64,000 bases of DNA from Dehalococcoidia bacterium. GTDB taxonomy: Bacteria > Chloroflexota > Dehalococcoidia > Plut-88900. Below are positions 14,413-48,175 of the stretch, in pieces (the first letter of the stretch is position 1; each line of letters opens with the position of its first letter). The stretch is taken from assembly GCA_965249275.1 (NCBI GenBank), contig CBDFLQ010000006.1:704001-768000 (forward strand). The letters run 5' to 3'. The position numbers were made by a program, and so were the translations under genes. The notes beneath the pieces were generated by a model, which had not been told where the DNA came from, ran no database searches, and worked only from the letters and a program-made list of their open reading frames with translations.

Positions 14413-14650
14413 TGTATAGACCGGGGACATAGGTTACACATGTTCGGAGACATGGGTTACACCATAAGGCATGGTAAATCTGATTCAGGAGGGTTTTCCG
14501 TTCGCACTGAGCAGAGTCGAAGGGTTAACCGAACGGAATGGGAGGGGTTTCCCAGCCCAACGCCAGGAGTTATGCAAAGGCATCTCAATTGGCCGCAGGC
14601 TCGTTGATGAGAGGCGATGATGCGGAAAGTGCGCCTTTAGCGTGCGCCGA
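14413..14650. mobile_element. 238-bp composite insertion (IS481-like left end) in a REP-like hairpin
   Basis: Starts TGTATAGACCGG with repeated GACAT(A/G)GGTTACA; flanked by duplicated GATGGG (14407-14412, 14651-14656). Confidence 0.55.
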
Positions 14651-16613: not shown

Positions 16614-17675
16614 TTGCCCAACCTCAGCATTCCCTCCAAGTCCGCCCTTCTTAAGATAATCTTAGTCCTTCTGTTCCTGGCCATTGGGGGAACTGCCGGA
16701 ACATTCAGTTATCTGGGATTCGTAGAACTGCACCAGCTCAATGAGTCCATCACTCAGGACCGTGAACGTCTTGCGCTGCTGGAAAGCGCCCCCACCCCTC
16801 AGCACACACCTACCCTTCAACCCGCACCCACCCCCCAACCCGTCCCCACGCCTCAGCCTACTCCTACAACCCAGCCAACTTCTACTCCCCAACCCGTCCC
16901 CACCCCCCAGCCCATTCCGACGCCTCAGCCCATCCCCACCCCTCAACCCACCTCTACTCCAATAACCTTGCCACCCACCGTCACCCCGATAAGCCTGCCC
17001 CCGTCCCTAACTCCCGTACCCACGTGGAATGATCTGTACACACAAATCAGGCGCTCCGTGGTGAAAGTGGAAACTACTGGGGGCAGCGGGACCGGTTGGG
17101 TGTATGAAGAGGGATGGCTGGTCACGGCAGCCCATGTCGTCAAGGGTTACAGGACCGTGACCGTTCACTATCAAGACTCGGAAGGTCAAGAGAAGTCCGC
17201 TATGGTAAACGTGCTGGTCAGAGACCGGCTCCATGATGTCGCAGCCATCGAGCTAAAGGACATAGACCTCCCGCCCATCCCTGGCCGGCGAGATGTGGAA
17301 GCCAAGGATGGCGGCGAGGCTGTTATGACTGTGGGCTACTCATCCGACCCGCCAATTGGATGGCCGAGCACAAGGGTTGGCATCCTGACTACCGTCTCCG
17401 AATTACCTTGGCTCGAAAACCTTAAGGCCATCGAGACCGACGCCTCATTTGACCCAGGTGATTCGGGAGGTCCAATTCTGGATCTCAACGGCAACGTCAT
17501 AGGCATAGCCCAGGCCACCGTCATAAGGTCAGGCTCACAACGGATACAGGGCAGACAATTCGCCGTGGGAATACGAGAGGTCGAAGCCGTATGGGAGCAA
17601 CTCAAGCGTAATGAGCGCCTGAACCAGGGCTCAGACTACTGGATATATCGCCGCTCTGAAGGCCCCGACGAGTAG
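16614..17675 (+). CDS. Membrane-anchored trypsin-like (S1C) serine protease with Pro/Thr/Gln-rich linker
   Basis: N-terminal TM, PTPQP repeats, catalytic triad motifs TAAHVV, HDVA, PGDSGGP. Confidence 0.85.
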   Translation: MPNLSIPSKSALLKIILVLLFLAIGGTAGTFSYLGFVELHQLNESITQDRERLALLESAPTPQHTPTLQPAPTPQPVPTPQPTPTTQPTSTPQPVPTPQPIPTPQPIPTPQPTSTPITLPPTVTPISLPPSLTPVPTWNDLYTQIRRSVVKVETTGGSGTGWVYEEGWLVTAAHVVKGYRTVTVHYQDSEGQEKSAMVNVLVRDRLHDVAAIELKDIDLPPIPGRRDVEAKDGGEAVMTVGYSSDPPIGWPSTRVGILTTVSELPWLENLKAIETDASFDPGDSGGPILDLNGNVIGIAQATVIRSGSQRIQGRQFAVGIREVEAVWEQLKRNERLNQGSDYWIYRRSEGPDE

Positions 17676-18599: not shown

Positions 18600-18732
18600 C
18601 CTCTCCCTCGTCGAGAGTTGTGCATTACCGTCATTCCTGCGGAGGCAGGAATCCAGGGGTAATGTGGGATAGGGTTCGATCCTCAGGGGCCGGGCCGCTC
18701 ATCCTGAGGTGACTCGAAGGGTCGAGCGGGGG
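18600..18732. repeat. Cluster of REP-like palindromes
   Basis: GTCATTCCTGCGGAGGCAGGAATCCA and CCGCTCATCCTGAG..TCGAAGGGTCGAGCGG; the latter has related copies near 11114, 25305 and 51850. Confidence 0.55.
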
Positions 18733-21302: not shown

Positions 21303-22613
21303 TTACTGGTACACAGCGTTCCATTCCGCCTGCAATCTGTCGGAGTTTTCACCTGCCCACCTCTCGTTTAGAAAGATGGCGTAGTCAAGGGTATCGGCTG
21401 TGAGAGGTAGCGAGTCTCTGACAGCGTCGTAGGCAGAGTCCTCTGCAATTACCTGCGCCCCCTTTAGGTTTACGGGACCATAGGTAATGCCCAGGCTCAC
21501 TGCAGCGTTTATCTCAGGGAAGGACGACCATGCGGCCCATAAGTTAGCCAGTAGATACGCATTGGGATTCGATTCCTTAAGCCCTGCAGGCATGCCGAAC
21601 ATATCGGTGCTAACTATGTATCCGGCCTCCCAATCCAACGCAAGGGGAGCGTCGTCCTGCCTTACCGCGTCGTAGATCCGGCCATTCCCACAAACCCCCA
21701 TAACTATGTCACGGGAAATGAGAAGCTCAGGACACTGGACACCGAATTCGGTAAAAATTACACCGCCCTTGGGGTCTTCGCTTAGCTCCCTCCATTTATC
21801 GAAGGAACGGTCGATCTCCTCTTGGGTGAAAGGTCCCCCCAAGAAGGTTCGCCCTTCTTCGGTTTCCAGGAGGCTGGGATCATCCGCCAATAGGCCGATG
21901 GTAGGATTATGAGGCCACCAGGAATTAGTGGCACGTCGTCCAGGGAATTTCTCGGTGTCAAAGAAGTCGGCCCAGGAGTCGGGTTGCTCGGTGCCCTCAG
22001 GATATTCATCGGTGTTGTAGCCGAGGACGTATGTCCAGGAGCTACCCCCTCCGGCGCCGTGTGGGAAGTTTTCCTGAACTGAAGGGAGCAAGTCAGGGAA
22101 GGTCCCACCTACTATGGCCATGTCAAAAGGCTCCAGGTCCCCGGTTATGATAAAAGACCTGATGTCCTGGCTGCCCAGATCGACTATGTGCCATTCAGGG
22201 TCCTCTATGTTAGCCATGGCACGGAACTTGCTATACACTACCGGGCTGTCCTCAATTATTACAATGCCGAACTTCTCTTCGAAAGGTGTAAGGAGAGCTG
22301 CCCGCTGGGCATTCTCGTAGGCGCCGCCCCACGAAACCCAAGTGAAGCTCTCGCCTCTGTGCTTCTCCAACTCCGCCTCTAGCTCTTCAAGGGTCGCCGG
22401 CTCCTCCGGCGTCCACTCCTCTATAGGTCTAATTTGTGGCTCCGGGGTGGGAGTAACCTGGGCTGCCAGAGTTGCCGTTGCCGGTGCGGGAGTATCATCG
22501 CCTCCGCAGGCGGCTGCCACCATTGCAATAGATATCAGGAGCCCCAAGATTCCTAGCACAACTATGTGCCGCTTAGATAGCCCTTTTCCGCGTATTCCAC
22601 GTAGCCTACTCAT
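21303..22613 (-). CDS. Orphan ABC substrate-binding lipoprotein (PotD/PotF-like)
   Basis: Lipobox VAAAC, SWGGAY, YNTD..P.SWADFFDTEKFPGRR, NGR, YGPVN. Confidence 0.85.
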   Translation of the reverse strand: MSRLRGIRGKGLSKRHIVVLGILGLLISIAMVAAACGGDDTPAPATATLAAQVTPTPEPQIRPIEEWTPEEPATLEELEAELEKHRGESFTWVSWGGAYENAQRAALLTPFEEKFGIVIIEDSPVVYSKFRAMANIEDPEWHIVDLGSQDIRSFIITGDLEPFDMAIVGGTFPDLLPSVQENFPHGAGGGSSWTYVLGYNTDEYPEGTEQPDSWADFFDTEKFPGRRATNSWWPHNPTIGLLADDPSLLETEEGRTFLGGPFTQEEIDRSFDKWRELSEDPKGGVIFTEFGVQCPELLISRDIVMGVCGNGRIYDAVRQDDAPLALDWEAGYIVSTDMFGMPAGLKESNPNAYLLANLWAAWSSFPEINAAVSLGITYGPVNLKGAQVIAEDSAYDAVRDSLPLTADTLDYAIFLNERWAGENSDRLQAEWNAVYQ

Positions 22614-23389
22614 CTGCCTCCTCCCGAAACTTAGCTTCCCTCGTGGGATAGCATCACATACCTATTAGCTCGCTTTGGGACTCCTTCTCACTAGTGTGAT
22701 ATATTTAGCAATATTCAACGTTCGTTCAATCACAAAAACTGGGACAACTCTTGTCAACTGTTTCCCACTTCCACCCGAATCGGCCTCCTGGAGGATTCAA
22801 CACGCTTAGTAGAAATTCGTGCCGGGGATAAAATAGCGTCAGGAATGGGTTGTTACCGGGATGCCGACGGGGGGGTTAGAAAGCCCACACCCTCCAATAT
22901 ACAGTAGAGTAATTCTCACTGATCCACTCTCAGGGGCAGCGTAGGAAGAAAGGAATAGACACCGGGTCTGCCTAAGAAGTTCATAGACTCCTTTATAGCG
23001 ACGTTTCCGCTACCCGCTTTAAATACATCGTACATGCGAATGGGAGTTACGTCAAGAAGTGAGGATTGTTTCACTATGTATTAAAGCCATGAGAATCTAC
23101 TTGCCAGAAGAGATTTTGATCATCCTTTCCGTGGTTGAATCATGCAGCCTTACAGGTCCAGAAGGCCTTTAGAACGGCTGCCAACACTTCTCGCAACAAT
23201 ACCCCACCCCCCGCTTGGTAACGATATATCAATAAAACAGGGCGGGTGGGCGGGACTCCACTTAATCCCGGGAGTAGGGACGCCACCCCTCCCCCGTAGG
23301 GGTGGTTCGCGAACCGCTCTGACCTCTGAGTAACCCCACCTCCGTCTCCGCCGCATCGAGCCATGTGCAACAAAAGTGACACGAACCCC

Positions 23390-23419
23390 TTGACCCAATG
23401 CGTACGCCTGTACTATATT
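23390..23419 (+). promoter_or_regulatory. Sigma70-like promoter with overlapping LexA-like box
   Basis: TTGACC-N18-TATATT; CGTAC-GCCT-GTACT at 23401-23414. Confidence 0.5.
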
Positions 23420-23425
23420 CACCCC

Positions 23426-24040
23426 CGACTAGCTCGTCACACACCTAAACCCTAAGGAGGAACCACAACCCAGGGGGAAGCCCAGCCCCGGCCCCGAGGA
23501 CTCAACGTCTAAGCCCATCCCAAAGGGCGGCCCACACGCCGCCCCTCGGCTCAAGCGAACGCCGCCATCTCCTCATACCAAAGGCCCCGGCTATCCCTTC
23601 CCCCACCCAGGCGATGGAAGGCCCACAGACTATCCTCGGCAGGCCCCGTCCAACGACGCCCCTGCCGATTCAACGCCCCTCATCATCGGGTGCGTTTACC
23701 CCGGCCCATTGCGCGCCGGTTTCCCGGGTAGGTCAACCGACCCCCGGTTTAGCAAGGCCCTCGTGTCCTTGTTTGTCCCGCCGTCCCTGCCATCCGTCTA
23801 CCCGGCGGATGCACCGGGACGCCGGTTCCGAAAGACCGCCTCAGGCGGCATCTTCCACGTCAGCGGTCCGGTCATGTGCCGCTCACGAATTGGGATCTGC
23901 CCCACACAACCCTGACCACAGCCGGCAACATGTGGGGATAATCCAGCCCGGCGCCGACGGCTCGGCAGCAACCCCCGGCCTGGTTTCTAGTCACGGACCT
24001 TCCATCGCCTGCCCCTCCACCAAAGCAAACCGAAACCCCC
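23426..24040 (+). ncRNA. Putative large structured ncRNA, copy A (unknown family; ends approximate)
   Basis: 5' ~190 nt homologous to the reverse complement of ~29100-29290; helix CAGGCGATGGAAGG (23608-23621) / CCTTCCATCGCCTG (23998-24011); serial internal hairpins; 3' motif GCAAACCGAAACCCC (24025-24039). Confidence 0.7.
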
Positions 24041-24102
24041 GGACGACAACCAAATATCGCCCCTCACCCCATGTATAATCCCCTGGCAGGAGGACACCCG
24101 AC

Positions 24103-25212
24103 ATGCGAGAACACCCCCTAGTTGACGTCGACAGCCACGTCCTTGAGCCCATGTCCGTCTGGCAGGACTACCTGGAACCCGACCTCAGGCCCCGTGCCAT
24201 CCGCTGGTCCACCGACGACAACGGGCGCGAGCTAATGCTGATCGACGGCAAGCCCGCGCGCCAGTTCATGCTCCGCAACGGCTGGATGGGCAGCCCCAAG
24301 GTCCCCGGAGGCCGCGCCTTCGAAGACCGGGTGACCACATCCCTCGGCGCAGCCAACGGCGCAGACCGCGTCCAACTGCTCGACAACGAAGGCATCGACA
24401 TCACCCTCCTCTACCCCACCCTCGGCATCCAGTGGGAGCCCGAGTTCGATGACTACAATCTCGCCGCCGCCCACGCCCGAGCCTACAACTCCTGGATCAC
24501 CGACCTCTGTAAACCCCATTCAGACCGCCTGGTTCCCGTAGCCCACGTAGTCGCCTCGGACGTCCAGGAGGGAGCGGCGGAGCTGGAGCGGGCCGCGGGG
24601 CTTGGGGCCCGGGGCGGCATGGTCAGCGGCAGACCCATTAACGGCATCCCCTACGGAGACCCATACTATGACCCCCTCTGGGCGCAGGCCCAGGAGTCCC
24701 GCATACCCCTCGCCCTGCACGTCATGGGCTACCCCAAGCACCTCGGCTACGACATGTACCCCGACACCAGCCCTAAGATCGCCTGGTGGGGCTTCGTCAC
24801 CCTCGGCCTGGAGGTCATCATCGGCCTGACCACCCTCTTCCAGGGCGCCGTCTTCGAACGGTTCCCGGACCTGCGCATCGTCGTCCTGGAGGCGGGGTCG
24901 GGGTGGCTGCCCTACTGGCTCGACAGGATGGACGAATACACGGAGCTCTTCACCTACGCCACGTCGCTATCGATGAAGCCGACCGAATACTTCAAACGAC
25001 AGTGCTGGATCTCCTTCGAACCCAGCGAGGAGATGATGCCCGAGACCATGGATTTCATAGGCGTCGACAAATTCATGTGGGCCGCCGACTACCCCCACAC
25101 CGACTCCGTCGCCGACCCAGTCCGTCTCCTAACAAAAATGCTCGCGCCCCTCTCCCAGGAAGACCGCTGGAAAGTCCTCGGCGACACCGCCGTCGAACTC
25201 TATGGCCTTTAA
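24103..25212 (+). CDS. Amidohydrolase_2 family protein
   Basis: VDVDSHVLEP, LYPTLG, LEAGSGW, WAADYPH. Confidence 0.88.
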   Translation: MREHPLVDVDSHVLEPMSVWQDYLEPDLRPRAIRWSTDDNGRELMLIDGKPARQFMLRNGWMGSPKVPGGRAFEDRVTTSLGAANGADRVQLLDNEGIDITLLYPTLGIQWEPEFDDYNLAAAHARAYNSWITDLCKPHSDRLVPVAHVVASDVQEGAAELERAAGLGARGGMVSGRPINGIPYGDPYYDPLWAQAQESRIPLALHVMGYPKHLGYDMYPDTSPKIAWWGFVTLGLEVIIGLTTLFQGAVFERFPDLRIVVLEAGSGWLPYWLDRMDEYTELFTYATSLSMKPTEYFKRQCWISFEPSEEMMPETMDFIGVDKFMWAADYPHTDSVADPVRLLTKMLAPLSQEDRWKVLGDTAVELYGL

Positions 25213-25231
25213 TAATCCTCTCTCCCTCGAC

Positions 25232-25384
25232 GAGACCTTTCTATGAATCGGGATTCATTGCGCCGGGGAACTATATTGCCCTTGCATTGGGGGCGGGGGG
25301 AATCCGCTCATCCTGAGCAGGGTCGAAGGGTCGAGCGGATTCCGGGAGGAGTCCCAGATAGTAGGCAGGTTGTGCAAAGATCCC
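25232..25384. mobile_element. Degenerate 153-bp MITE related to 11076-11207
   Basis: Ends GAGACCTTT.. / ..GTTGTGCAAAGATCCC; near-duplication TCGAC/TCGAT; sits in a CTCTCCC..GGAGA hairpin and carries the same internal CCGCTC..GAGCGG palindrome. Confidence 0.5.
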
Positions 25385-25544
25385 TCGATAGGAGAAGCCT
25401 AGGGCCTGCCCCGAGTCCCCCAAGGAAGGGAGGGTGCTCCCCATAACCTTATTGCGAACCATTGCAATAGCAACAGTTCGCATGTATAATCCTCCCAAGG
25501 CTTAAGCGCCTACATAGAAATCGGCGCAGAGAAAGGAAAACCCA

Positions 25545-25955
25545 ATGGTAAAGATCTACAACGTCCACAAAGCTATTGAAAACCTGACCCCCATAGTCAA
25601 CCGGGGCGAGAGTACCCCCGAAGAAGTGGTAGTCGCAGGCTTCGAGATTCTCGGCAGGGGCGATTTCCACGATGCGGCCATCAACCTCGGCACCTTCAAC
25701 GGCGACGCCGGCTGGGAGCGGCACGTCCAGGGTGACGAGATCGTACACATTGTGGCCGGCGAGACGGCAATCCAGATGCTCGTGGACGGCGAGCGCCAAA
25801 CCATTCAGGTAAGCGCGGGCGACCTACTGGTCGTGCCCCAGGGCACATGGCATCGCTTGCAGTCCGAAAAGGGAGTGACCGTCCTGACCGCAACCCCCGA
25901 GGGCCACGAAGACCACGCCTTCGTCGACGACCCCAGAGAACTGTACCCCTGCTAA
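25545..25955 (+). CDS. Cupin domain protein
   Basis: WERH..GDE..HIVAG and GDLLVVPQGTWH. Confidence 0.85.
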   Translation: MVKIYNVHKAIENLTPIVNRGESTPEEVVVAGFEILGRGDFHDAAINLGTFNGDAGWERHVQGDEIVHIVAGETAIQMLVDGERQTIQVSAGDLLVVPQGTWHRLQSEKGVTVLTATPEGHEDHAFVDDPRELYPC

Positions 25956-26115
25956 GCGTGTTGCTAAGCTTATGAATCCGGAGGGTTCATCTCCCTCCTT
26001 TGACTCTAGTTTGGGGTGGAGACGTTATTGTCTCCACCCTTGCACTATCCGACATGCGAGCCCCCAAGCCAGAATCTAACCCCGCCCCATCCCCCCGTGC
26101 TACACTCCCTCCGAC

Positions 26116-26859
26116 ATGCGAGCCCTCGCCCTAGCCTCTATGCTTTTATTCATAACAATACTTTCAGCCTGCGATAATGACACTCCTATCGAATGGGGCT
26201 ACACCGGCCCCGGCGCCCCCGAGAACTGGGCCGCCCTATCCCCCGACTTCGCCGCCTGCGCAAGCGGCAAACAGCAGTCCCCCATCGACATCACAGACTA
26301 CCAAGTTGGCGGACCCGACCCGATCTCCTTCTCATACGCCACCGCCGAGACAACCCTCCGCAACGACGGCAGACAGGTCCACGCCGACTCCGCCCCCGGC
26401 AACACCGCCATGCTAGGAGGTCGGGAATTCACGCTGAAGTCGGCGCACTTTCACTCGCCCTCGGAGCACCTGGTGGACGGCAATAGCTTTGCCGCCGAGC
26501 TTCACATGGTCCACGCCGACTCAGACGGCCGTCTGGCAGTCGTCGGGCTCCTGTTCACCCTCGGTGAGCCCAGCCCCGTAGCACAGTCGATTCTCGACGC
26601 CTCCCCACCCCCCGACGGCACTGGCAACGCCCATATCCCTCTCGCCGGCTCCCTCCCCACCGAGCTCTCCTACTACCGCTACGACGGCTCGAAAACCACT
26701 CCCCCCTGCGATGAGCCCGTCGACTGGCACGTCCTACGACAGCCAATGACCATATCCCAGGAGCAGGTGGAAGGCTTGCTTTCGCTGAGCGGAGGCCCCA
26801 ATAACCGCGCCGTCCAGCCGACTGGCGACCGCGTCATTACAATCGGCGGCGCGCCTTAG
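26116..26859 (+). CDS. Alpha-class carbonic anhydrase, lipoprotein
   Basis: Lipobox LSAC, WGY, QSPIDI, HFHSPSEH, ELHMVH, TTPPC, NNR. Confidence 0.93.
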   Translation: MRALALASMLLFITILSACDNDTPIEWGYTGPGAPENWAALSPDFAACASGKQQSPIDITDYQVGGPDPISFSYATAETTLRNDGRQVHADSAPGNTAMLGGREFTLKSAHFHSPSEHLVDGNSFAAELHMVHADSDGRLAVVGLLFTLGEPSPVAQSILDASPPPDGTGNAHIPLAGSLPTELSYYRYDGSKTTPPCDEPVDWHVLRQPMTISQEQVEGLLSLSGGPNNRAVQPTGDRVITIGGAP

Positions 26860-26893
26860 TAAGGGGCTAAGAGAGTGGGGGTTGTACGGCCCC

Positions 26894-28063
26894 TTACGGA
26901 ATCACGCTGCCGGCGATCAGGGTGCTGGCTGCGGCAAACATGCCACCCGGCCCGTGAGCAATCCCGACCTTGGCATCCTTCACCTGCCGCTCTCCCGCCT
27001 CGCCTCGAAGCTGACGCGTCAACTCGATCAGCGTGAAGATGCCGTACATCCCCGAGTGGGTGTAGGAGAGGCCGCCGCCGTTGGTGTTCATCGGGAACTC
27101 GCCGCCCGGCGCAGTCCTCTGCCCCTCGACGAACGGCCCGCTCTCCCCAGGCCCAACGAACCCCAGGTCCTCCAGTGCCAGCATTGGCGTGAAGGAGAAC
27201 GCGTCGTACAGCTCCGCCACGTCAATGTCCGAGTGCTTGACCCCGGCCATATCGAATGCAGCCTTACCGGACTTCCGTGCGCAGTCGGAGGTTGTCATGT
27301 CCCTCATCATGCTCACTCGCTCGTGGGAGACCGCCTCCCCCGTCCCGAGAACGTATACCGGCTTGTGCTTCAGGTCCTTGGCCCGGTCCGCGGTGGTGAG
27401 CACTATCGCTCCTCCGGCGTCGGTAACCAGGCAGCACATAAGGAGGGTGAAGGGCCAGCAAATCATCCGGGCATCCATAACGTCTTGGATTGTGATGGGG
27501 TCTTTCATCCGGGCCATCGGGTGCATCATTGCCCACTTCCGCGTCGCCACCGACACCTCCGCCAGCTGCTCCCGAGTCGTGCCGTACTTGTGCATGTGCC
27601 GGGTGACGGGTATCGAGAAAGTAGTAGTCGGGCCGAACGTCCCGAACGGGTCTTCGAACTGGCCATTGTGGGTTGCGCTTTCATCTGCGAAACCGGGCAG
27701 GCCCATGCGTGAGCGGCCGCTTTCGCCGTGACTGATGACCGCCGTGTTGATCACGCCCGCGCTCAGTGCCAGCATCGCGTGCTCCACGTGCATGATGAAG
27801 GAGCACCCCCCGACAATCGTGCTGTCCGCGTACCGGGGCATGACGCCAAGGTACTCGCACAGGTCGTTCACCGTGGTCTCGGGGGACCCGCCTGCCATGA
27901 ACAGCCCGTCTACGTCTCCCAGGCCCAGGCCCGCATCATCGAGGGCGTTTCGTATCGACTCGGCGTGCAGCGTGAGCACCGACTTATCGGGCAGCTTGCC
28001 CATCTCGTCAGACTCAGACGCTCCGACTATGGCGACCTTACCGCGCAAATCTTTCGGGGCCAT
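26894..28063 (-). CDS. SCP-x type thiolase / lipid-transfer protein family
   Basis: GGCSF, CCLVTDAGGA, ELYDAFS, NTNGGGLS, QLRGEAGERQV. Confidence 0.88.
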   Translation of the reverse strand: MAPKDLRGKVAIVGASESDEMGKLPDKSVLTLHAESIRNALDDAGLGLGDVDGLFMAGGSPETTVNDLCEYLGVMPRYADSTIVGGCSFIMHVEHAMLALSAGVINTAVISHGESGRSRMGLPGFADESATHNGQFEDPFGTFGPTTTFSIPVTRHMHKYGTTREQLAEVSVATRKWAMMHPMARMKDPITIQDVMDARMICWPFTLLMCCLVTDAGGAIVLTTADRAKDLKHKPVYVLGTGEAVSHERVSMMRDMTTSDCARKSGKAAFDMAGVKHSDIDVAELYDAFSFTPMLALEDLGFVGPGESGPFVEGQRTAPGGEFPMNTNGGGLSYTHSGMYGIFTLIELTRQLRGEAGERQVKDAKVGIAHGPGGMFAAASTLIAGSVIP

Positions 28064-28090
28064 GTCAGTCTCCTTATCACGTCAAAAGGC

Positions 28091-28498
28091 TCATGCGGGC
28101 CGGAACTGTGGCAGCGTCACTTCGTCGGTCACGTCAAGGTAGGCGATCTCGACGGCCATGTCGCAGTGGACCTTCTCCGGGTCGGGCTCGATGCCGATGA
28201 GGTTGCTCATCATCCGAGGCCCCTCTTCCAGCTCGACAACGGCGATGACGTATGGGTCAGACCCGAAGCCGGGGGCCGGCCTGTGGTTTATCACGAACGA
28301 GTACAGCGTCCCCTTCCCGCTGGCCTCGAACCACTCCACGTTTGACGAAAAGCAGTGGGGACAGAAGGGACGAGGATAGAAATACGCCTTACTGCAGTCC
28401 TTGCAGCGCTGTATGAGCAGCTTATGCTCCTTCAGCGCGTCCCAGTAGGGCCTGGTCTCGGGGGTTGGTGAGGGCAGGGGACGATTAGTATCCGCCAA
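28091..28498 (-). CDS. DUF35 Zn-ribbon/OB-fold partner of the thiolase
   Basis: QRCKDC..YPRPFCPHC, GTLYSF, VELEEGPRM; TTG 28498 follows GGAGG. Confidence 0.9.
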   Translation of the reverse strand: MADTNRPLPSPTPETRPYWDALKEHKLLIQRCKDCSKAYFYPRPFCPHCFSSNVEWFEASGKGTLYSFVINHRPAPGFGSDPYVIAVVELEEGPRMMSNLIGIEPDPEKVHCDMAVEIAYLDVTDEVTLPQFRPA

Positions 28499-28669
28499 TG
28501 GGGCCACCTCCCTGGGCATCCGTTGGGAATTCCGACGCCGCCTATCCTATCGCCCACCCGTTCCCGGTGTCAATCTGATGTACTCGTCCGGTAGGTCAGT
28601 GACACACTGGCCTTTTATTCAGTCCTCCAGAGGCGGATCCGCCCAAGGCGGATGTTCCATCTTCGATTG

Positions 28670-29295
28670 TGGGGTTTCGGTTTGCGTTCTGTCTGTTGGG
28701 TTTTGGGGTGGCGATGAAAGACGCTTGCTGGATTCGGCTCCCTATCTTTAGATAATGCGGGCTAGGAGGCGTCCCGGGAACGTGGGGACGGGGCTCCGCC
28801 GCCGCCTAGACCTGGAAGTATGGTCGGACGTACGGGTCCGTCATCCGTCATAGGCTCCAATGAAGGTTGGCTGCGCTGTCCGCCGCAGGCGGGTGCAGGA
28901 AGGGGAAAGTCCAGGGTCAGTTCCCCTCGCAGGAGTACGGGGTATCCGGTTCGCCGCCTGTATCCAGGAGCCGGGAGTGGCGGACAGTCCAGTTTTATTT
29001 GAGGAAGCGGACGGAGAGCCGAGCGGTCCTCGGCTACGGGCTGCCCCGTTCCGCTCCATAGGACAAGGTTGCTCCGTGAGGAGACTTTTAAGTACGGTCC
29101 AGGGCGTCTTCCATCGCCTGATGGTCAGGGAAGGGATAGCCGGGGCCCTTGGTAGAGGAGATGGCGGCGTTCGCTTGTGCCGTGGGGCGGCATGTGGGCC
29201 GCCCTTTGGGATGGGCTTGGACGTTGAGTCCTCGGGGGCCGGGTGGGCTTCCCTAGTGTTTGGTTCCTCCTTAAGGTGGGTGTCGGGTCTAGACT
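28670..29295 (-). ncRNA. Putative large structured ncRNA, copy B (same unknown family; ends approximate)
   Basis: Minus-strand 5' domain matches copy A; helix GGCGATGGAAGACGC (29118-29104) / GCGTCTTTCATCGCC (28724-28710); 3' motif GCAAACCGAAACCCC (28685-28671). Confidence 0.7.
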
Positions 29296-29301
29296 GGTCC
29301 A

Positions 29302-29330
29302 ATAATAGAACACATGTCTTATGAAGTCAA
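29302..29330 (-). promoter_or_regulatory. Near-consensus sigma70 promoter with overlapping LexA-like half-site
   Basis: Minus strand TTGACT-N17-TATTAT; AGAAC-ACAT-GTCTT at 29307-29320. Confidence 0.55.
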
Positions 29331-29379
29331 GGGGTGGATGTCACACTTTTGGGGGGGCACCGCCCCGGCCCTTCCGGGG

Positions 29380-29578
29380 AACCCTCACCCCCTTGGTCCC
29401 CCTCTCCCTTAGGGCCTTCAAGGGAGAGGGGGAAAGAAGAATAGAGGCCCGCATACGTGCTAGGCACGTATGCGGGCCTCTAATTCAGTACTGGGGGGAG
29501 GGGGAGGAAAAAACAGAGGCAGAGGCTGGCACTTCTGCGCCCACGTATGCCTCTAATTCAGTACTGAGGGGAGGGGGT
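29380..29578. repeat. REP-like palindrome cluster including a perfect 19-bp inverted repeat
   Basis: CCCTCTCCCTT..AAGGGAGAGGG; TAGAGGCCCGCATACGTGC-tag-GCACGTATGCGGGCCTCTA (29442-29482); duplicated GCCTCTAATTCAGTACTG. Confidence 0.6.
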
Positions 29579-29723
29579 GATGTCACCCCTTTATGTGAAC
29601 GTGATCAGCTACTATCCTCACCATGACACCGTCATATGTGTCACCCATATTTGTGAATGACTTGACAGATATGGACTAGTATTTTATTCTACGCCGCAGG
29701 ATTTTTTCTAACAAGGTTAGCAC

Positions 29724-32297
29724 ATGCCTCACGTCCTGCGAGTGTCCTACACGTTTGGAATCTTCGCCATCATCGGGATTGCCCTGTTCTTTGCAGTCGG
29801 AGTCTTTGCCGACGACCATAATTCCGTGGACCTATCCCCTTCCGTTTTATGGGAGGGAGAGGAGATCACTCAGCCGGTTGTCGGAGAGTTCCTAACCGCT
29901 GCCCTGGTTGCCGATGACCCGACCGGCATGTCCTGGCAGTGGGCCCGCTCCCAAGATGGAGAGAGCGGCTGGGAGGACATTGAGGCTGCAACCTCCACGA
30001 AGTACATCCCCACCGGGGATGACGTAGGGCGCTACCTCCGGGCAGCCGTCTCATATACCGATGGAGACGGCAACACGCAGAGTGCAGAGGCAATCACCAC
30101 CGATCAGGTGGAGCAAGAGAGGAGTGGTGTCCGCTGCCCATGGTGCGAACCTGGGCCGATATGGACGGCGACACCCGTGCCCACCAATACACCCGTGCCC
30201 ACCAATACACCCGTGCCCACCAATACACCCGTGCCCACCAATACACCCGTGCCCACCAATACACCCGTGCCCACCAATACACCTGTGCCCACCAATACAC
30301 CCGTGCCGACCAATACGCCCGTCCCGACCAATACACCCAGACCCGTCATCCCCACACCCACTCCCCTCAGCAAACCCCCACCCCCAACAGGGGTTCACGC
30401 AGAGGCACAGAGCTATACGTCAATTCTCATCTCTTGGAACAGGGACAGCAGGGGCGGAGTACAGAGTTATGACGTAGACTATGATGACTCCAGCGAGCCC
30501 CGGGACCACCACGGTGGTGGCCCCAACACCTTCAACCTGGTCTCCGGCCTCCGGATTTGCACTCTGTACACATTCACCGTTCAGGCCTTTGGTGACGGGA
30601 CTACCTACGCCGCTCGATGGAGCGACCCGTCCCACCCAGTAGAAGAGTGGACTCTCTGTCCTACCCCCACTCCGACCTCTACCCCTACCCCTACCCCCAC
30701 TCCGACCCCTACCCCTACCCCTACCCCTACCCCTACTCCCACCCCTACCCCTACTCCCACCCCTACCCCTACCCCTACTCCTACGGCCAGGCCTTGTCTG
30801 GTGGACTGCGAGCCACTACATATATGCAATACGAAGGCCGTTATCCCTGGATTTTCCAACAAACCTCACCTTGTGGCAGACTGTGTTGTCCTAAAAAGCA
30901 TCATAGACACCCTGAGGGGTGATGCGGGCGATGCATTGAATTGGAATGGCGAAACACTGTTGCGTGAATGGGAAGGACTCGGCTTTAGCCCCAAAACTGA
31001 CGAGCAGACCAACACGACCTATGATCGTGTTACAGCGTTGTACTTGAACGATAAGAACTTTAGCGGGACAATCCCTGCAAGGCTCGGCTATTTGTCTGCA
31101 CTCAATATCCTGTTTCTAAATGACAATGCTTTAACAGGATTTCTCACAGAATTAATAGTCGGAGATGAAATAGTGACCATTAACCTTGCTAACAATTCGT
31201 TGGAAGGACAAATCCCATCCGAATGGGGATATCGGGACAAACTCCAATCTCTTATCCTCAATGACAATATATTGGATGGAGGAATTCCGAGTTCACTGGC
31301 TAACCTCGAAAATCTTGATTTCCTATATCTCCAAAACAATGAATTAGAAGGTCCAATACCAAGTGCAATAGGAGACATGCCTTCTCTTAGCAGATGGTAT
31401 CTTGCGGGCAATAACCTCAGTCCTTGCTTACCTACATCACTGCTCAACATCGAAGAGAATGACTTTACTTTTCTTGGGCTCATTATCTGCCTTCCGACTC
31501 CTAAGAGAGAAGTACTTTGTCCATTAGCTGGAAGGATTGATCCTTCTGATTATGATGACAACAGCACTATTGTTAATATCGGGCCTGGCTCGTATCAAGT
31601 GCATAGATCGTCCACGTATATGTTCTTTCCTTTACCTGACCTCGGAGGTTCAGAACTTGGCCTGTCTGGGCTAGCTGCTTGTGGTAATAGCGCCGTTGCC
31701 ACTGCATCGGTCACGACTGTCAACACTAGTTTGTATGGCGCTGTTTACCATGGATACAATTCCGGTAGAACTGGATCTTTAGGACACTCCACACCGATTT
31801 TGGGACAAATGTGTACGAATAGTCGGACCTGTCTGTGGCAAAGTGGGTTTCTATTCGCAGGACAGGGTTGGGGTAACCAATTTCAAGTGTACGGTACGCA
31901 CCGTATATCTAGCAGCGGTGGGACTATAAACACATACCGGACAACTGGAGGATATAGTGTCGACGACGTAAGATTTGCTCAACCACCTCCCCATCCTCCG
32001 TTGAATGTTGATGCAACCGTCAATAGTCAAAATTTTGTCAATCTAACTTGGACTACGGAGCCTGATGTGGCCAGTTATGTAATTGAAAAAAGTGAAGATG
32101 AAGATTCCGATTTTAGGGAATGGGAGCAATTGATGGAAATAAGACCACCAGGCCAGATAGCGTTCTTGCTGGCCTGCGGTGATTCCTACTACTTAAGGAT
32201 AAGGTCTAAAGGTAGCGGATCACCTTATCCAGCAGCAAATGGCCCCCCTTCGCGTTCAATCAGGGTGTCTTCTTATTCCCCGTGCCCTACGAGGTGA
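29724..32297 (+). CDS. Secreted multidomain surface protein: Ig-like, TPVPTN repeats, FN3, PT linker, plant-type LRRs, C-terminal FN3-like
   Basis: Signal peptide; SWQWARS..YLRAAVSYTDG; ISWN..YTFTVQA; LxLxxNxLxGxIP repeats. Confidence 0.8.
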   Translation: MPHVLRVSYTFGIFAIIGIALFFAVGVFADDHNSVDLSPSVLWEGEEITQPVVGEFLTAALVADDPTGMSWQWARSQDGESGWEDIEAATSTKYIPTGDDVGRYLRAAVSYTDGDGNTQSAEAITTDQVEQERSGVRCPWCEPGPIWTATPVPTNTPVPTNTPVPTNTPVPTNTPVPTNTPVPTNTPVPTNTPVPTNTPVPTNTPRPVIPTPTPLSKPPPPTGVHAEAQSYTSILISWNRDSRGGVQSYDVDYDDSSEPRDHHGGGPNTFNLVSGLRICTLYTFTVQAFGDGTTYAARWSDPSHPVEEWTLCPTPTPTSTPTPTPTPTPTPTPTPTPTPTPTPTPTPTPTPTPTARPCLVDCEPLHICNTKAVIPGFSNKPHLVADCVVLKSIIDTLRGDAGDALNWNGETLLREWEGLGFSPKTDEQTNTTYDRVTALYLNDKNFSGTIPARLGYLSALNILFLNDNALTGFLTELIVGDEIVTINLANNSLEGQIPSEWGYRDKLQSLILNDNILDGGIPSSLANLENLDFLYLQNNELEGPIPSAIGDMPSLSRWYLAGNNLSPCLPTSLLNIEENDFTFLGLIICLPTPKREVLCPLAGRIDPSDYDDNSTIVNIGPGSYQVHRSSTYMFFPLPDLGGSELGLSGLAACGNSAVATASVTTVNTSLYGAVYHGYNSGRTGSLGHSTPILGQMCTNSRTCLWQSGFLFAGQGWGNQFQVYGTHRISSSGGTINTYRTTGGYSVDDVRFAQPPPHPPLNVDATVNSQNFVNLTWTTEPDVASYVIEKSEDEDSDFREWEQLMEIRPPGQIAFLLACGDSYYLRIRSKGSGSPYPAANGPPSRSIRVSSYSPCPTR
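30171..30332 (+). repeat. Nine tandem 18-bp units ACACCCGTGCCCACCAAT (coding TPVPTN)
   Basis: Directly counted; first six identical, last three with synonymous changes. Confidence 0.9.
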
Positions 32298-32306
32298 TGA
32301 TACGCT

Positions 32307-33857
32307 ATGAAATGGGAAATGCTAATAGCAATTTTATTCTCTCTGCTGTTCCTGCTATTCGCCATATCCTGCAAGCCTACGCCTGTTGATGCCGAGTCGG
32401 CATTGAAAGAAGTGTGTTCACGGAGTGAAACACACACACACTACGATATGACAACAACTGGCACTGTGATAAGAGGCGAGCAAAGCTCGGAATTCTCCAT
32501 AGATTACGAAGTGAGCGGGAACAGCTTTCGACAGATAGTAATGGACGATCAGGATATGGTTTTGGGTGAGTTGATTTTCGTGGACGGCGTATTTTATGTG
32601 AGAGAGACCAATATACTAGGACAATGGGGGCAATGGGCAGCGTACCAGGATTATGGAACAGATAGTGCTAATTCGAGTCCAGGTGCCCGAGGGAGCCCAG
32701 GAATATCAGGAATATGTGGCATCGAAGGCCTTGTTAATTTCAGGGATATGGGAACAATGACGAAAGATGGCTTATCCCTGAGGGTATACGCAGCGTTGGC
32801 TCCATCGGGATCCGGTGGAGGAAACAACCGGATTGAATACATGTTTTGGGTGGACAGCAACAGAATCCTACGCAGGTTTTCGCTCAACTCCTTCAGTGAG
32901 GGTGTATCTGGGCTTTTGGATGAGAGCGTATCATACACCACTACTGTTCACGGTATTGATGTAGTGAATGTGATCGTTGCTCCTATCTCTCCTCCGGATT
33001 TTCAGTCCCCAACTCCTTTCCCGGCCAAGGAAGCTACTTTTGTGGATGCAACCGCAGAGCCCAGCGCATTCGCAACTGCCCAAGCTGTATCCACCACAAT
33101 TGCCGAACAAACCCTCAGGCCGTCTTCGGAGATAACGGGTCTAGTGAGCGACATGGAAGAGGGAGAGAGCGACTCATTTGGTGTGAGTGCTACGAACCTG
33201 GTGTCGACGGACAGCTACAGCATACGGGTGACCACGGACAACACCAATACGGGGTTTGACAGCGGGTGCATGGATCAGCAGGAGGACGTGACGATATCTG
33301 CTGGGAGCACGTCCCACACGGAGTCTCTCATGCTGTACGGGTGTACTGCGCCCGGTGGGACGGTGACGGCGACGCTGCTGCAGGGGAGCACTATTGTGGC
33401 CACTGCCACCGCCGACGTGGCGGTAACCGATCCCACCCCCGAACCTTCAGCCACACCGGAACCCACCGCAACACCCGAACCTACACCTACGCCCACATCA
33501 ATTCCTCAGCCCACACCAACTCCCCAACAGACCTCTAGCGTGTCCGTCTCCCTCTCTCCTCGGGATGACCCCTACATCACCCAGACCGACATCACCGTCT
33601 CCTGGTCAGACTCCACTCCCTGCCAAGGAAGCTACTTCGTAGGAGTTTCCGACAGCCAAGGCTATTTGATTAGATTGCTCGGTTCCCACCCCGCACCCGC
33701 TACTACAGCTATTGACGCAGACCTCAGCCTCCCCTGGGACAATGTCCCCAACTATTCTTGGACGGTAAGCGTGCGTTGCGACCCTTCCGAGAACTCCTCC
33801 GATTGGTGGATGCTCGGAGAAGTGCCCCTACAATCGGGCTTGCCCAGTTCGCCCTAG
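32307..33857 (+). CDS. Lipoprotein with PT-rich linker and shared C-terminal domain
   Basis: Lipobox FAISC; C-terminal ~134 aa nearly identical to that of the next gene. Confidence 0.8.
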   Translation: MKWEMLIAILFSLLFLLFAISCKPTPVDAESALKEVCSRSETHTHYDMTTTGTVIRGEQSSEFSIDYEVSGNSFRQIVMDDQDMVLGELIFVDGVFYVRETNILGQWGQWAAYQDYGTDSANSSPGARGSPGISGICGIEGLVNFRDMGTMTKDGLSLRVYAALAPSGSGGGNNRIEYMFWVDSNRILRRFSLNSFSEGVSGLLDESVSYTTTVHGIDVVNVIVAPISPPDFQSPTPFPAKEATFVDATAEPSAFATAQAVSTTIAEQTLRPSSEITGLVSDMEEGESDSFGVSATNLVSTDSYSIRVTTDNTNTGFDSGCMDQQEDVTISAGSTSHTESLMLYGCTAPGGTVTATLLQGSTIVATATADVAVTDPTPEPSATPEPTATPEPTPTPTSIPQPTPTPQQTSSVSVSLSPRDDPYITQTDITVSWSDSTPCQGSYFVGVSDSQGYLIRLLGSHPAPATTAIDADLSLPWDNVPNYSWTVSVRCDPSENSSDWWMLGEVPLQSGLPSSP

Positions 33858-36165
33858 GCCGCCACTCACCTTCTACAACCGCCCCTACCCCTACCCCTCC
33901 ACCCCCCCGGCACAGACCGAAAATACGACTATGGCGTGAGCCCATCCCTTGGGAACCTTTTAGGCAACTAATACGTTATAGTCATATAAGATGTATGGTC
34001 CACAAGCATCTAGCGCTTTTTGGCTGCATGTGGATGTATGTCACCGAGTTCACGGTTATTTAGCTCAAAGGTAGCCTCGGCCTCCGACCATGATGCACGA
34101 ATTCGGGCACACCCTGGGGAATCCGAGCTTTTGGGAGATATCTACTAGAGTGGATTTGGCTCCAATAGTTGATGTAGTCAACACAGGAGCAGTCATGCGA
34201 ATGTTGTATAGAAGCCGATTGCGGATGATGCAGATCGTGGGCCTGGGTGTGGCCCTAGTGGTTGTTGTGCTCCTAGCGATAGGCTGTGGTAGTGCCGACA
34301 CCGAGGTAGAGACCACACAAGGCAGTGGCAAAAGTTCGGCATCGGGTGCGATGTCCAGCGGCGTTCCCTACACAGGCGAGTCCTCGATGGAGGAAACGAT
34401 AGCGTATGCGGAGGCTGTGGCCCGCGTCAGGTTCAGGTCCGCCAGACAGACCATCGAGGAAATCCGATTTGATTTCCGCAACTCCGACCGATATATCACT
34501 TATTATGCCAACTCCATCGAGATTACGTTCGAGGTGCTTGAATATCTCAGGGGTAGCGGAGGCGATGAAATCAAAGCGGTGCTATTCGACCATGACGGAT
34601 TGCGTGAAACCCGTGCGGAGGTGGAGGCCCTCAATGAGAACCTATTGTCCTTGCGCACCACCCAATGGGACGAGAGAGAAGCCATCGTGTTCTTGCATTC
34701 GGGTGACGGTGTGGTCAGCACTTTTGACGACCCCGACCGCTATTGGATGACCTCCTTCCGCAACAACGGAGAGGACGGCTACACGGTAGCGAGCAGATGG
34801 GAAAAGGCGTGGCTCCCCGATGCCGCCGCACAGGGGGCGACGGGCAGGGCATTGGGCGGAGAGCAGCGGTTCTTGATAAATCTGCCGAGTGGATCCCAAG
34901 ACGCGAGTGGACGTAGTAGCACTCAAGGCGAGTCGATGACAATCAGTGAATTGAAGGCCCTGGTCACGAGGATAGGGAATGAACTTGCCGCCGGTGGTAC
35001 GGAAGCCTACGCCGAGTGCGTTCGTGACAAATACCGCTCGGCAAGATATCAACAGTACCTCAAGAACCATCGTGAGACCGTATGGGGCGTCGAGTACAAC
35101 CGCCAACACGTGAAAGCGATAACGTCGGGCGCATCATCCGGCACCGAAGTGTACGTCGGTAGTGCGGCTGACCATATTGATGCAGATGACATCCCCGACT
35201 CGCTCGATATTGATGATGTGATATTGCACACAGGACAGGATGCGGACTTGTTTGACAAGGTGTGGCCAGCCAACGCTGTTACGGCGCGACCCCTTCCTCA
35301 AGGCACCTACCGGTTCTATTGGGCCGACCAGCCCAAGAATTACGCCTTGTGTGATGCCATATCGGAAATCCGTAAGAAACGAAACGAGGTAATCGTCACG
35401 GTCGCCCCGCCCTCCGGTACCCTTCACGAAGCCTTCTTTGATCCGGTGACCATTGGCACGGGGGTGGGGGTTGACGGGTCCAACGGCGTCATAAACCCCG
35501 CCGCCTTCTCTATAGACGGCACATCAACCTCCATCACCGGCCTCAAGTGGGAAAGCGGCTCCGTCGTCCTATCCCTCTCCCCCTTATCCTCCCTCTCGGG
35601 GCAGAAGGTGGAGTTCATAGAGCTGGACGGGTCCGTTTCCCTCTCACTACCCGCGTCCTCCGCCACAGAGGACTCTTCCGCAGGCACCCTCTCCTGGTCC
35701 GTATCAGACCAGCCCTGGCACAACGACGACTTACTCATGCTGCGGATTGTGGCTTCCACAACACCCGAACCCACCGCAACACCCGAACCTACACCTACGC
35801 CCACATCAACTCCTCAGCCCACACCAACTCCACAACAGACCTCAAGCGTGTCCGTCTCCCTCTCCCCTCGGGATGACCCCTACATCACCCAGACCGACAT
35901 CACCGTCTCCTGGTCAGACTCCACTCCCTGCCAAGGAAACTACTTCGTAGGAGTTTCGGACAGCGAAGGTTATTTGATTAGATTACTCGGTTCCCACCCC
36001 GCACCCGCTACTACAGCTATTGATGCAGACCTCAGCCTCCCCTGGGACAATGTCTCCAACTATTCTTGGACGGTAAGCGTGCGTTGCGACCCTTCCGATA
36101 GCTCCTCCGATTGGTGGATGCTCGGAGAAGTGCCCCTACAATCGGGCTTGCCCAGTTCGCCCTAG
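33453..36165 (+). repeat. ~405-bp near-identical direct repeat (33453-33857 and 35761-36165)
   Basis: Both copies encode TPEPTATPEP...SSVSVSLSPRDDPY...LQSGLPSSP-stop with few substitutions. Confidence 0.9.
34195..36165 (+). CDS. Lipoprotein with shared C-terminal domain
   Basis: AGGAG before ATG 34195, lipobox LAIGC; the longer ORF start at 34090 is probably not used. Confidence 0.78.
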   Translation: MRMLYRSRLRMMQIVGLGVALVVVVLLAIGCGSADTEVETTQGSGKSSASGAMSSGVPYTGESSMEETIAYAEAVARVRFRSARQTIEEIRFDFRNSDRYITYYANSIEITFEVLEYLRGSGGDEIKAVLFDHDGLRETRAEVEALNENLLSLRTTQWDEREAIVFLHSGDGVVSTFDDPDRYWMTSFRNNGEDGYTVASRWEKAWLPDAAAQGATGRALGGEQRFLINLPSGSQDASGRSSTQGESMTISELKALVTRIGNELAAGGTEAYAECVRDKYRSARYQQYLKNHRETVWGVEYNRQHVKAITSGASSGTEVYVGSAADHIDADDIPDSLDIDDVILHTGQDADLFDKVWPANAVTARPLPQGTYRFYWADQPKNYALCDAISEIRKKRNEVIVTVAPPSGTLHEAFFDPVTIGTGVGVDGSNGVINPAAFSIDGTSTSITGLKWESGSVVLSLSPLSSLSGQKVEFIELDGSVSLSLPASSATEDSSAGTLSWSVSDQPWHNDDLLMLRIVASTTPEPTATPEPTPTPTSTPQPTPTPQQTSSVSVSLSPRDDPYITQTDITVSWSDSTPCQGNYFVGVSDSEGYLIRLLGSHPAPATTAIDADLSLPWDNVSNYSWTVSVRCDPSDSSSDWWMLGEVPLQSGLPSSP

Positions 36166-47290: not shown

Positions 47291-47302
47291 AGAGGGCCTG
47301 TT

Positions 47303-48175
47303 ATGACTAACGAAAAGCTTTCAAACTGGGGCCGCTGGGGCCCCGACGACCAGATAGGGGTCCTGAATCTGCTCCAGAACTCTTCCTCAGTACTTGATGC
47401 TATAAAGCTGGTAAAGAAGGGGGACGTATACAGCCTCGCCGTGCCCCTGGAAAAGGACGGTCCCCAGTTCCCCCTCTTCCACAAGACCTGGCGCGTCTCC
47501 CACTGGCAGCACCTCCACGATCCCGATCTCGACATCATCGACGATGTGATCGCCATGGAAACCCACTCCGGCTCTCACATCGACGGTCTGGGACACTCCT
47601 GGCACGACGGACAGTTCTACAACGGCTTCTCCTCAGACAAGTACGCCAGCAGCCGGGGCGTCGAGCGCCTGGGCATCGAGAATGTGCGCCACATCTTCGG
47701 CCGCGGCGTCATGCTCGACGTCGCAGCCTATAAGGGAGTCGACCACCTCGGCCCCGCCGAGCCCGTCACCGCCGATGACCTGGACAACGTCGCCGCCGCC
47801 CAAGGCGTCGACCTAAAGCCCGGCGACGTGGTTTTGGTCCGCACCGGCTGGTACACCCTCTTCGGTAAGGACCGAGCCCGGTGGGCTACATCATTCCCAG
47901 GCCCCGACGCCTCCGTGCTCCCCTGGCTCAAAGAGCACGACGTGGTAGCCATAGGCACCGACCATCCCGCCTGTGAGCTCTTCGAAAACTTGGAAGAGCC
48001 CGGGGATACACCCCTCCACCGGCACGGCCTCCGGGACCTGGGCGTCTATCTCCTCGAAAACATGGACTTGGAAGAACTGGCCCGGGACAAAGTCTACGAG
48101 TTCCTGTTCGTCGGGACGCCACTGCGCATCACCCATGGCACAGGCTCGCCCTGGAACCCTTTGGCAATAGCATGA
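47303..48175 (+). CDS. Cyclase family protein, tandem paralog
   Basis: Same motifs; long identical stretches with the preceding gene. Confidence 0.88.

Follow-up and report, generated by a model that had tools for sequence, protein, structure and literature searches.

Dissimilar interiors of two Dehalococcoidia elements as probable alternative central domains of a promoter-carrying, non-autonomous transposon family

In a 64,000-nt stretch of a Dehalococcoidia bacterium genome (GenBank assembly GCA_965249275.1, contig CBDFLQ010000006.1, positions 704,001 to 768,000; hereafter the window), two elements, A on the plus strand and B on the minus strand, each enclose an interior between the two arms of the same short helix (Table 1). 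A preliminary description of this DNA had remarked that the two interiors share no obvious sequence yet are of nearly equal length and packed with hairpins, and concluded that length and foldedness are under selection while sequence is free, as expected for a swappable cargo or a size-constrained domain. Our analysis points, with a probability that we put at roughly 0.6 for the whole explanation, to the following: A and B are two copies of a genus-restricted element that lacks open reading frames (ORFs) and numbers about 50-90 copies per genome, and their interiors are alternative central domains, exchanged between copies, of a non-autonomous transposon carrying a promoter and a long folded RNA.

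The genome that holds the window (G000; 2.9 Mb, 87% complete; other genomes of the genus are labelled G001, G002 and so on) has 53 full copies of the conserved 5′ domain, at 69-100% identity in a blastn search with positions 23440-23625. Every copy has the same layout, consisting of a GTGACAC box, a promoter with a TTGAC -35 and a TAnnnT -10 box, the 5′ domain, the left arm, the interior, the right arm and an A/C-rich tail. The box plus the -35 sequence (CCCCTTGAC, with up to two mismatches) is found in 52 of the 53 copies, the remaining one lying at a contig end, and the right arm follows 288-520 nt downstream of the left arm in all of them. The tails, aligned by eye, have in common the pattern ..AACCGAAACCCC..ACAA(C/T)TGAATA. 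Between A and B, the 170 nt preceding the left arm are 93% alike. The 5′ domain of the family contains a Shine-Dalgarno-like AAGGAGG with no start codon after it, and inspection of the sequence found no start codon following this motif in A. By a crude ORF call, 36 of the 53 copies face the next gene.

The 5′ domain was recovered by blastn in all eight other species of the genus, and in none of 32 genomes of other genera (3 from other genera of the family and 29 from other families). Similarly, an 11-mer from the arm occurs 51-88 times per genome in all nine genomes of the genus, against 0-9 times for control words, and at most 22 times in any of 292 other genomes of the class (one unpublished genome, G243, is counted here without consequence for the outcome). 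As no covariance model was built, absence outside the genus rests on these blastn searches and arm-word counts.

The interiors fall into distinct sequence classes. Those of the 53 copies in G000 form 10 classes, with 13, 11, 10, 6, 4, 3, 2, 2, 1 and 1 members, and 149 distinct copies from nine species, a sample biased towards copies found through the 5′ domain, form 14 clusters. Class 1, to which interior A belongs, has 13 copies of 351-378 nt in G000 and 27 across five species; class 2, that of interior B, has 11 copies in G000 (379-389 nt) and 23 across five species, and one class-2 copy reaches 520 nt through an inserted repeat of ~130-150 nt that is also found elsewhere in the genome. The base of the helix divides the classes into two superfamilies: superfamily I has the basal extension GTCC..GACTA / TAGTC..GGAC, and superfamily II the extension ACGC.CTGGA / TCCAG..GCGT (ACGCCCTGG / CCAG..GCGT).

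Several statements of the preliminary description can be judged against this larger sample. The arms of A do enclose 376 nt as described, and those of B enclose 385 nt if 12-nt arms are used, the earlier value of 379 nt being obtained with 15-nt arms, which is apparently how it was counted. The two interiors indeed show no detectable likeness in sequence (the best blastn match has E = 0.21 at word size 7), because A carries class 1 and B class 2. Their nearly equal length, however, is only the mode of a wide spread: the interiors range from 288 to 520 nt in the 53 G000 copies and from 182 to 522 nt in the 149 copies, with quartiles of 355, 384 and 413 nt, so the idea of a size-constrained domain has to be given up, wide variation among homologues being the result that the preliminary description itself had named as refuting it. 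The idea of a swappable cargo fared better, in that about 14 unrelated classes are found with one and the same 5′ domain and helix, and the class differs between species at seven of eight loci compared. The supposition that sequence is free does not apply within a class. Class 1 copies are 73-100% identical across five species, and at B's locus the interiors of G000 and G002 are 94.3% identical, whereas identity in the neighbouring gene is 89.3% overall and falls to 77.6% when third codon positions are taken; G000 and G003 give, in the same order, 93.1%, 95.8% and 90.2%. A BLAST comparison proposed in the preliminary description yielded no outside source: interiors A and B had no match in phages, the two whole elements had none in plasmids, and blastn of the 53 interiors against the genome (E = 1e-6) returned only family members, a second family and two small repeats, so that captured host sequence was rejected as an origin, as were antisense targets long enough to register at this threshold.

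The second family, with nine or more loci in G000, has the same promoter box, a different 5′ domain of ~300 nt and the helix ATGGAAGG/CCTTCCAT. It lacks the A/C-rich tail, and its interiors have their relatives in class 9 of the main family.

The ends of the elements resemble those of transposons. G000 contains 33 left ends (TGATCCCGTTCACATAGAG) and 37 right ends (CTACCGAACGAGTACA), of which 17 pairs lie 739-1199 bp apart (14 at 739-865 bp, the other three at 902, 1029 and 1199 bp), and the right end ..GTGTCACTAACCTACCGAACGAGTACA, when reverse-complemented, is similar to the left end TGATCCCGTTCACATAGAGGGGTGACA. A 5-bp target-site duplication is perfect in 10 of the 17 pairs, with four of five bases matching in two more. 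In 10 of the 17 the duplication is directly followed by TTG, which places the element 5 bp upstream of a -35 box. Empty sites with a single copy of the 5-mer are present in G001 at B's locus (..GTTCAGATTGACACC..) and at the C7:236068 locus. Taken together, the terminal inverted repeats (TGATCCCGTTCACATAGAG... / ...CGAACGAGTACA) and the 5-bp duplications indicate non-autonomous cut-and-paste transposons, whose intact copies measure 0.74-0.90 kb and are in most cases found 5 bp upstream of a -35 box. The element contains no conserved ORF, and no pair of ends within 4 kb has the size of an autonomous insertion sequence (IS); two wider pairs, of 1199 and 2498 bp, were not inspected for a transposase. 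Transposases of the rve type are encoded in all nine genomes, and G000 has an IS481-like rve IS encoding 329 amino acids, with TGT..ACA ends and 5-bp duplications, whose end matches the element end at 18 of 28 positions.

We also observed that rve-type ISs (encoding 381, 401 or 329 amino acids) often lie immediately upstream of element promoters, at C7:460031, C7:248501, C6:525070 and C7:521651 in G000 and also in G002 and G005. One of those encoding 401 amino acids ends 29 nt before the -35 box of an element, and remnants of the same IS end precede several other copies.

Exchange of central domains is suggested by comparison of eight loci (those of A, B and six others) with the corresponding places in five other genomes. 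The element is present at 19 of the 40 places, where its class equals that of G000 at 6 and differs at 13, and two or more classes are found at seven of the eight loci. Within G000, the types of leader, pre-arm region, interior and tail occur in 28 combinations among the 53 copies. On the sequence alignments, B's locus is a clear case of replacement in place. G005 has there a 488-nt class, only 33% identical to interior B, inside an insertion that is otherwise like that of G000: the two genomes have in common the composite upstream insertion (most of it, in bins of 70-100% identity), the right-end variant CCGGACGAGTACA, the TCAGA duplication and flanks that are 85-100% identical. Replacement sets in within the 5′ domain, ahead of the arm by about 100 nt, which fits homologous exchange and not a site-specific cut at the arms. 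The nested repeats of the composite upstream region (29331-29607) have the appearance of further promoter-seeking repeats, inserted immediately upstream of the -35 box of B itself.

With their arms, A and B fold better than dinucleotide shuffles (z = -5.44 and -3.97, respectively; none of 100 shuffles each was as good), and the stems listed for them in the preliminary description are present both in the sequence and in the minimum-free-energy (MFE) folds. The statement that the interiors are packed with hairpins is weakened: the MFE folds have nine hairpins each, a number expected from composition (shuffled A gives 8.1 +/- 1.8). Good folding is seen on the antisense strands too (z = -4.83 for A and -2.81 for B). 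When the arms were removed, and one representative per class was compared with 30 shuffles, the classes of superfamily I gave z = -3.5 to -6.1. Pairing between the 24 nt at the start of an interior and the 24 nt at its end has a mean energy of -16.5 kcal/mol, compared with -10.3 kcal/mol when one of the two ends is taken from the other superfamily.

In an alignment of 22 class 1 copies from five species, 98% of cells pair, and 7 of 106 pairs change on both sides, compared with 2.6 in shuffles (0 of 500 reach the observed number) and 1-3 in slid controls. The covariation in class 1 is therefore modest but above both controls. In class 2, two-sided changes are seen in 5 of 90 pairs of an 18-copy alignment, which is weak. 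For the 5′ domain, RNAalifold gave a poor consensus from 69 copies (11 pairs). Clear selection on the fold is confined to the closing helix and A's superfamily. The earlier suggestion that foldedness is under selection holds for the closing helix, its class-specific extension and the class of A, and is weakly supported in the superfamily of B. A fold common to A and B was considered and rejected, as tree-edit distances only slightly smaller than those of shuffles (z = -1.2, -2.25 and -2.44) were too weak for it.

In four metatranscriptome runs that belong to two studies, the assembled contigs span 23323-24045 and 28625-29347, as well as parts of 27420-28624, the latter mainly in two runs. Their depth is zero on 22600-23322, 24046-26937 and 29348-29800. 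The contigs thus cover the elements but neither the flanks of A nor the gene downstream of it, and they partially cover the region downstream of B. No intrinsic terminator was found at the 3′ end of either element (that of A was checked on its own strand).

We propose that each copy supplies a strong promoter and a predicted transcript of ~0.65 kb, made up of the conserved 170-nt 5′ domain, a nearly invariant helix of 10-12 bp, the central domain and the A/C-rich tail. The central domain would come in ~14 sequence classes of two superfamilies, each class itself conserved, and the conserved flanks would allow the classes to pass from copy to copy through homologous recombination or gene conversion. 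It would in this way behave as an exchangeable cassette of unconstrained length, and what is kept would be its enclosure by the invariant helix and a class-specific complementary extension, with a stable internal fold as well in superfamily I. The transcript may be a discrete, abundant RNA, in which the helix would hold the 5′ domain and the tail in register whatever the cassette. Transcription would probably end in the G-poor tail, by a Rho-type process, before the host promoter is reached, and the host promoter may be insulated by a folded RNA ending in the tail. Such termination would make an insertion beside a promoter tolerable.

Several observations weigh against this explanation. Terminal repeats are present at both ends of B, while neither a canonical left nor a canonical right end was found in A. 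Some two thirds of the G000 copies do not have both ends, and the transposon assignment is not demonstrated for all copies. Since the target rule (5 bp from the -35 box) fixes the junctions, most of the 13 class differences could be independent insertions, and only B's locus has extra shared markers beyond the junctions. The high identity between species could reflect recent exchange and not purifying selection. Without arms, five superfamily II classes gave z values of only -2.6 to +1.0, and another copy of B's class reached only -2.0. The metatranscriptome contigs give no strand, ends or levels. Finally, an initial count of 129 G-U against 17 A-C cells, which seemed to identify the transcribed strand, was dropped when it failed a symmetric test: among pairs predicted on both strands, G-U and A-C numbered 1 and 10 in one case and 5 and 6 in the other. 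As this test does not separate the strands, the structure could matter as DNA, and the strand is then assigned from the promoter alone.

The alternative that survives best, though we consider it unlikely, is that the interiors are neutral filler in a selfish repeat, old and diverged sequence in which small palindromic insertions have accumulated, with palindromes that exist as DNA, RNA that has no role if it is made, and class differences that arise through independent insertion at promoter hot spots. It would account for the folding of superfamily II no better than shuffles, for hairpin counts that equal those of shuffles and for the failure of G-U and A-C counts to separate the strands, and the exact target rule means that recurrent insertion gives identical junctions. 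Neutral filler is also suggested by the nature of the differences within a class, which are often gains and losses of whole hairpins (a 22-nt hairpin lost, a 28-nt hairpin duplicated), by a 22-nt hairpin unit (GGAACATCCGCC..) of whose 73 occurrences in the genome only 15 fall within these elements, and by the class-2 copy whose inserted repeat is also present at other genome sites. However, filler would hardly show greater identity between species than the third codon positions next door (94.3% versus 77.6%), or a covariation in class 1 above both controls. Furthermore, the arms are nearly invariant over the 149 copies (the right arm is exact in 115), and the adjoining extension varies by class yet stays complementary. 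Copies that lack terminal repeats have also retained the promoter, which is present in 52 of 53, and at B's locus G000 and G005 share the composite upstream insertion and the right-end variant although their interiors differ.

A bolder form of the preferred explanation, which we regard as decidedly doubtful, takes the invariant helix to be a natural cassette slot in a highly expressed RNA spread by transposition. The genus would possess about 14 interchangeable domains as a library and reshuffle them among 50-90 expression sites. Specificity for a partner, such as a protein, nucleic acid or invader, would be set by the variable domain, with a common function provided by the constant 5′ domain. 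If so, the system would be an RNA-level counterpart of gene-cassette or antigenic-variation systems. More generally, if the RNA is functional, it would represent a large, undescribed family of bacterial noncoding RNAs (ncRNAs), spread as transposon cargo with a built-in exchangeable domain. The copies are natural chimeras, with which the functional part of a large RNA could be sought. Should the RNA have no function, the elements still show how mosaic intergenic DNA is built by recombination among dispersed repeats in sponge-associated Dehalococcoidia. The elements are also a clear case of promoter-adjacent transposon targeting, and the turnover of cassettes between species can be measured, as 13 of 19 shared places differ in class. 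They carry a warning, too, against inferring selection from matched length and hairpins in two copies.

It is very improbable, in our estimation, that the invariant helix instead bounds a dedicated cassette system, in which either a recombinase acts on the arms as DNA (by inversion or exchange) or a ribonuclease (RNase) releases the interior as a class-specific trans-acting RNA. Such a system would explain why both arms are nearly invariant and everything inside them varies, and why the helix core ATGGAAGG/CCTTCCAT is common to the second family with its other 5′ domain. Together with the extension, the helix reaches about 20 bp, a length that may suit double-strand-specific RNases. Against inversion, no minus-strand match was found among the 149 interiors (E = 1e-4), and an invertible segment was rejected at the level of these copies. 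Exchange at the arms is at odds with the start of the replaced tract at B's locus, ~100 nt before the arm, and release of the interior with RNA contigs that continue through the left arm of A and through the two arms of B. That the interiors encode small proteins can be dismissed: ORFs of 153-154 codons do overlap both interiors, including one of 154 codons that starts at an ATG in the left arm of A, but the same ATG frame stops after 8 codons in B, the class-1 copies differ by 1- and 2-nt gaps (372-378 nt), the Shine-Dalgarno-like motif is not followed by a start codon, and none of the three ORFs overlapping A and B has a Pfam match.

No description of this element family, or of such an arrangement, was found in the literature searched, and it combines properties of several known systems. 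[quoted passage not shown] As far as those portions allow a comparison, the present element is like them in its terminal inverted repeats, 5-bp duplications, lack of a transposase gene, dozens of copies and empty sites in relatives, as well as in having a related IS481-like IS in the same genome. At 0.74-0.90 kb it is larger than typical MITEs (usually < ~0.6 kb) and better fits the cassette-carrying, MIC-like type. It departs from both in its passenger, a promoter-driven predicted structured RNA of 0.65 kb with an exchangeable central domain, in its insertion 5 bp upstream of -35 boxes, and in that many copies, including A, have no terminal repeats.

Correia elements of Neisseria and ‘mobile promoters’ are small repeats that bear promoters, and like them the present element is a dispersed intergenic repeat that brings a promoter beside host genes. 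In contrast to them, its promoter is at the far end, with ~650 nt of conserved, folded, predicted ncRNA before an intact host promoter. BIMEs of Escherichia coli, BOX elements of pneumococci and NIMEs of Neisseria are mosaic intergenic repeats built of interchangeable modules. The modules of the present element likewise combine in many ways, but they are hundreds of nucleotides long, have a fixed order in one transcription unit and lie within the limits set by an invariant long-range helix.

The predicted RNA also resembles the large orphan ncRNAs of bacteria and the transposon-linked RNAs listed in Rfam (OLE, ROOL, GOLLD, raiA and HEARO/IscB omega RNA) in its size of 0.5-0.8 kb, its many helices and its own promoter, and it resembles HEARO in its many copies. 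It differs from them in having no Rfam match, no associated nuclease gene and a central domain of unrelated classes. Membership of a known Rfam family (OLE, ROOL, GOLLD, HEARO, riboswitches, T-box, group I/II introns) was rejected for want of any covariance-model match: at the gathering threshold the whole window gave only two tRNAs, region 23200-24150 gave no match at E up to 10, and among thirteen loci that carry other classes the only matches were a 5S rRNA and a tRNA.

Table 1. Positions of the parts of elements A and B, their immediate surroundings and the loci of the second family
Feature	Position	Strand	Remarks
A, GTGACAC box	23376-23382	+	Upstream of promoter
A, sigma-70-type promoter	23390-23419	+	TTGACC, 18 nt, TATATT; 10/12 matches (promoter scan)
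A, conserved 5′ domain	23426..23609	+	Transcript start estimated from -10 box
A, Shine-Dalgarno-like TAAGGAGGAAC	23453-23463	+	Inside 5′ domain
A, left arm of closing helix GGCGATGGAAGG	23610-23621	+	Exact inverted partner 23998-24009
A, interior (central domain)	23622..23997	+	Class 1, superfamily I; 376 nt between arms
A, right arm of closing helix CCTTCCATCGCC	23998-24009	+	Complement of left arm
A, 3′ tail	24010..24057	+	A/C-rich, G-poor; short form without canonical right terminal repeat
Host promoter -10 box TGTATAAT	24072-24079	+	Context 3′ of A, outside element
Amidohydro_2 gene	24103-25212	+	Pfam PF04909, E = 1.2e-30; context downstream of A, outside element
B, left terminal repeat TGATCACGTTCACATAAAGGGGTGACA	starts 29607	-	~250 nt of nested repeats between this repeat and the B promoter
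B, upstream region	29331..29607	-	Nested repeats, including intrinsic terminator 29482-29442 (strong)
B, promoter	29302..29330	-	TTGACT, 17 nt, TATTAT; 10/12 matches
B, conserved 5′ domain	29119..29295	-	Inverted repeat with 5′ domain of A: 89 nt at 93% and 32 nt at 91%
B, closing helix arms	29118-29107 and 28721-28710	-	Same helix GGCGATGGAAG/CTTCCATCGCC as A
B, interior	29106-28722	-	Class 2, superfamily II; 385 nt between arms
B, 3′ part	28579..28709	-	A/C-rich tail, small CCGCC..GGCGG/GGAGG hairpin unit, right terminal repeat ..GTGTGTCACTGACCTACCGGACGAGTACA ending 28579
Target-site copy TCAGA	28578-28574	-	Directly after B right end 28579
Host promoter 3′ of B	28573-28544	-	TTGACA, 18 nt, TAGGAT; promoter of ChsH2-like gene 28519-28091
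Second family in G000	C5:157274, C5:271377, C5:477697, C5:734870, C6:129286, C6:841023, C6:947041, C7:453769, C7:724970		Outside window

The host -10 box downstream of A is common to the six genomes inspected, whether or not the element is present. Amidohydro_2 paralogues (25-45% identity) are over-represented after elements, making up 6 of 45 downstream proteins in G000, the one at 24103-25212 among them; the upstream elements are of class 1 in four cases, and of classes 6 and 7 in one case each. The element-free amidohydrolase loci of G005, G001 and G004 (L155, L156 and L158, respectively) have about a dozen TTCAATCA-like repeats at a spacing of ~10-11 nt, located ~60-260 nt upstream of the orthologue of 24103-25212, before its promoter. 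This array, which is missing in the element-bearing genomes, looks like a regulator-binding array. Elsewhere in G000, the sequence directly after the element at C5:615315 (L026, L180-L184) resembles a tRNA gene in its 5′ half (GGGGCGTGGCGCAGTCCGGTAGCGCGC); if it is one, some copies would sit before tRNA promoters.

Other repeats accompany the elements or occur elsewhere in the window. The 22-nt hairpin unit (GGAACATCCGCCTCTGGAGGA / ..GGCGGA), which lies at 28640-28670 in the tail of B, is often tandem among its 73 occurrences in the genome, is inserted in three copies of the 5′ domain and is found in relatives directly before ribosome-binding sites. A 35-nt palindromic unit resembling repetitive extragenic palindromes (REPs; CCGCTCATCCTGAG...GGGTCGAGCGG) is present at 14498-14532, 18695-18729 and 25304-25338, and REP-related units (GTCATTCCGAGGCTCCGCGAGGAATC, GTAGGGGCGACCGGCCGGTCGCC) follow many elements, one of them being the insertion target of the IS that encodes 329 amino acids. 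Long tandem repeats of 12 and 18 nt at 16791-16970, 30135-30800, 33432-33516, 35758-35824 and 62974-63430 would encode Pro/Thr-rich linkers, with one run inside an 857-codon ORF (29724-32297). A tandem gene duplication is present at 46427-48274 (888-nt spacing, 75-85% identity), as is a 300-nt direct repeat whose copies, 33445-33744 and 35753-36052, are 95% identical and 2.3 kb apart. Lastly, the 3′ end of a tRNA gene together with the next 55 nt (56750-56877) recurs 2.5 kb downstream (59331-59395) at 71% identity, a pattern that would be expected of an integrated element with tRNA-derived attachment sites.

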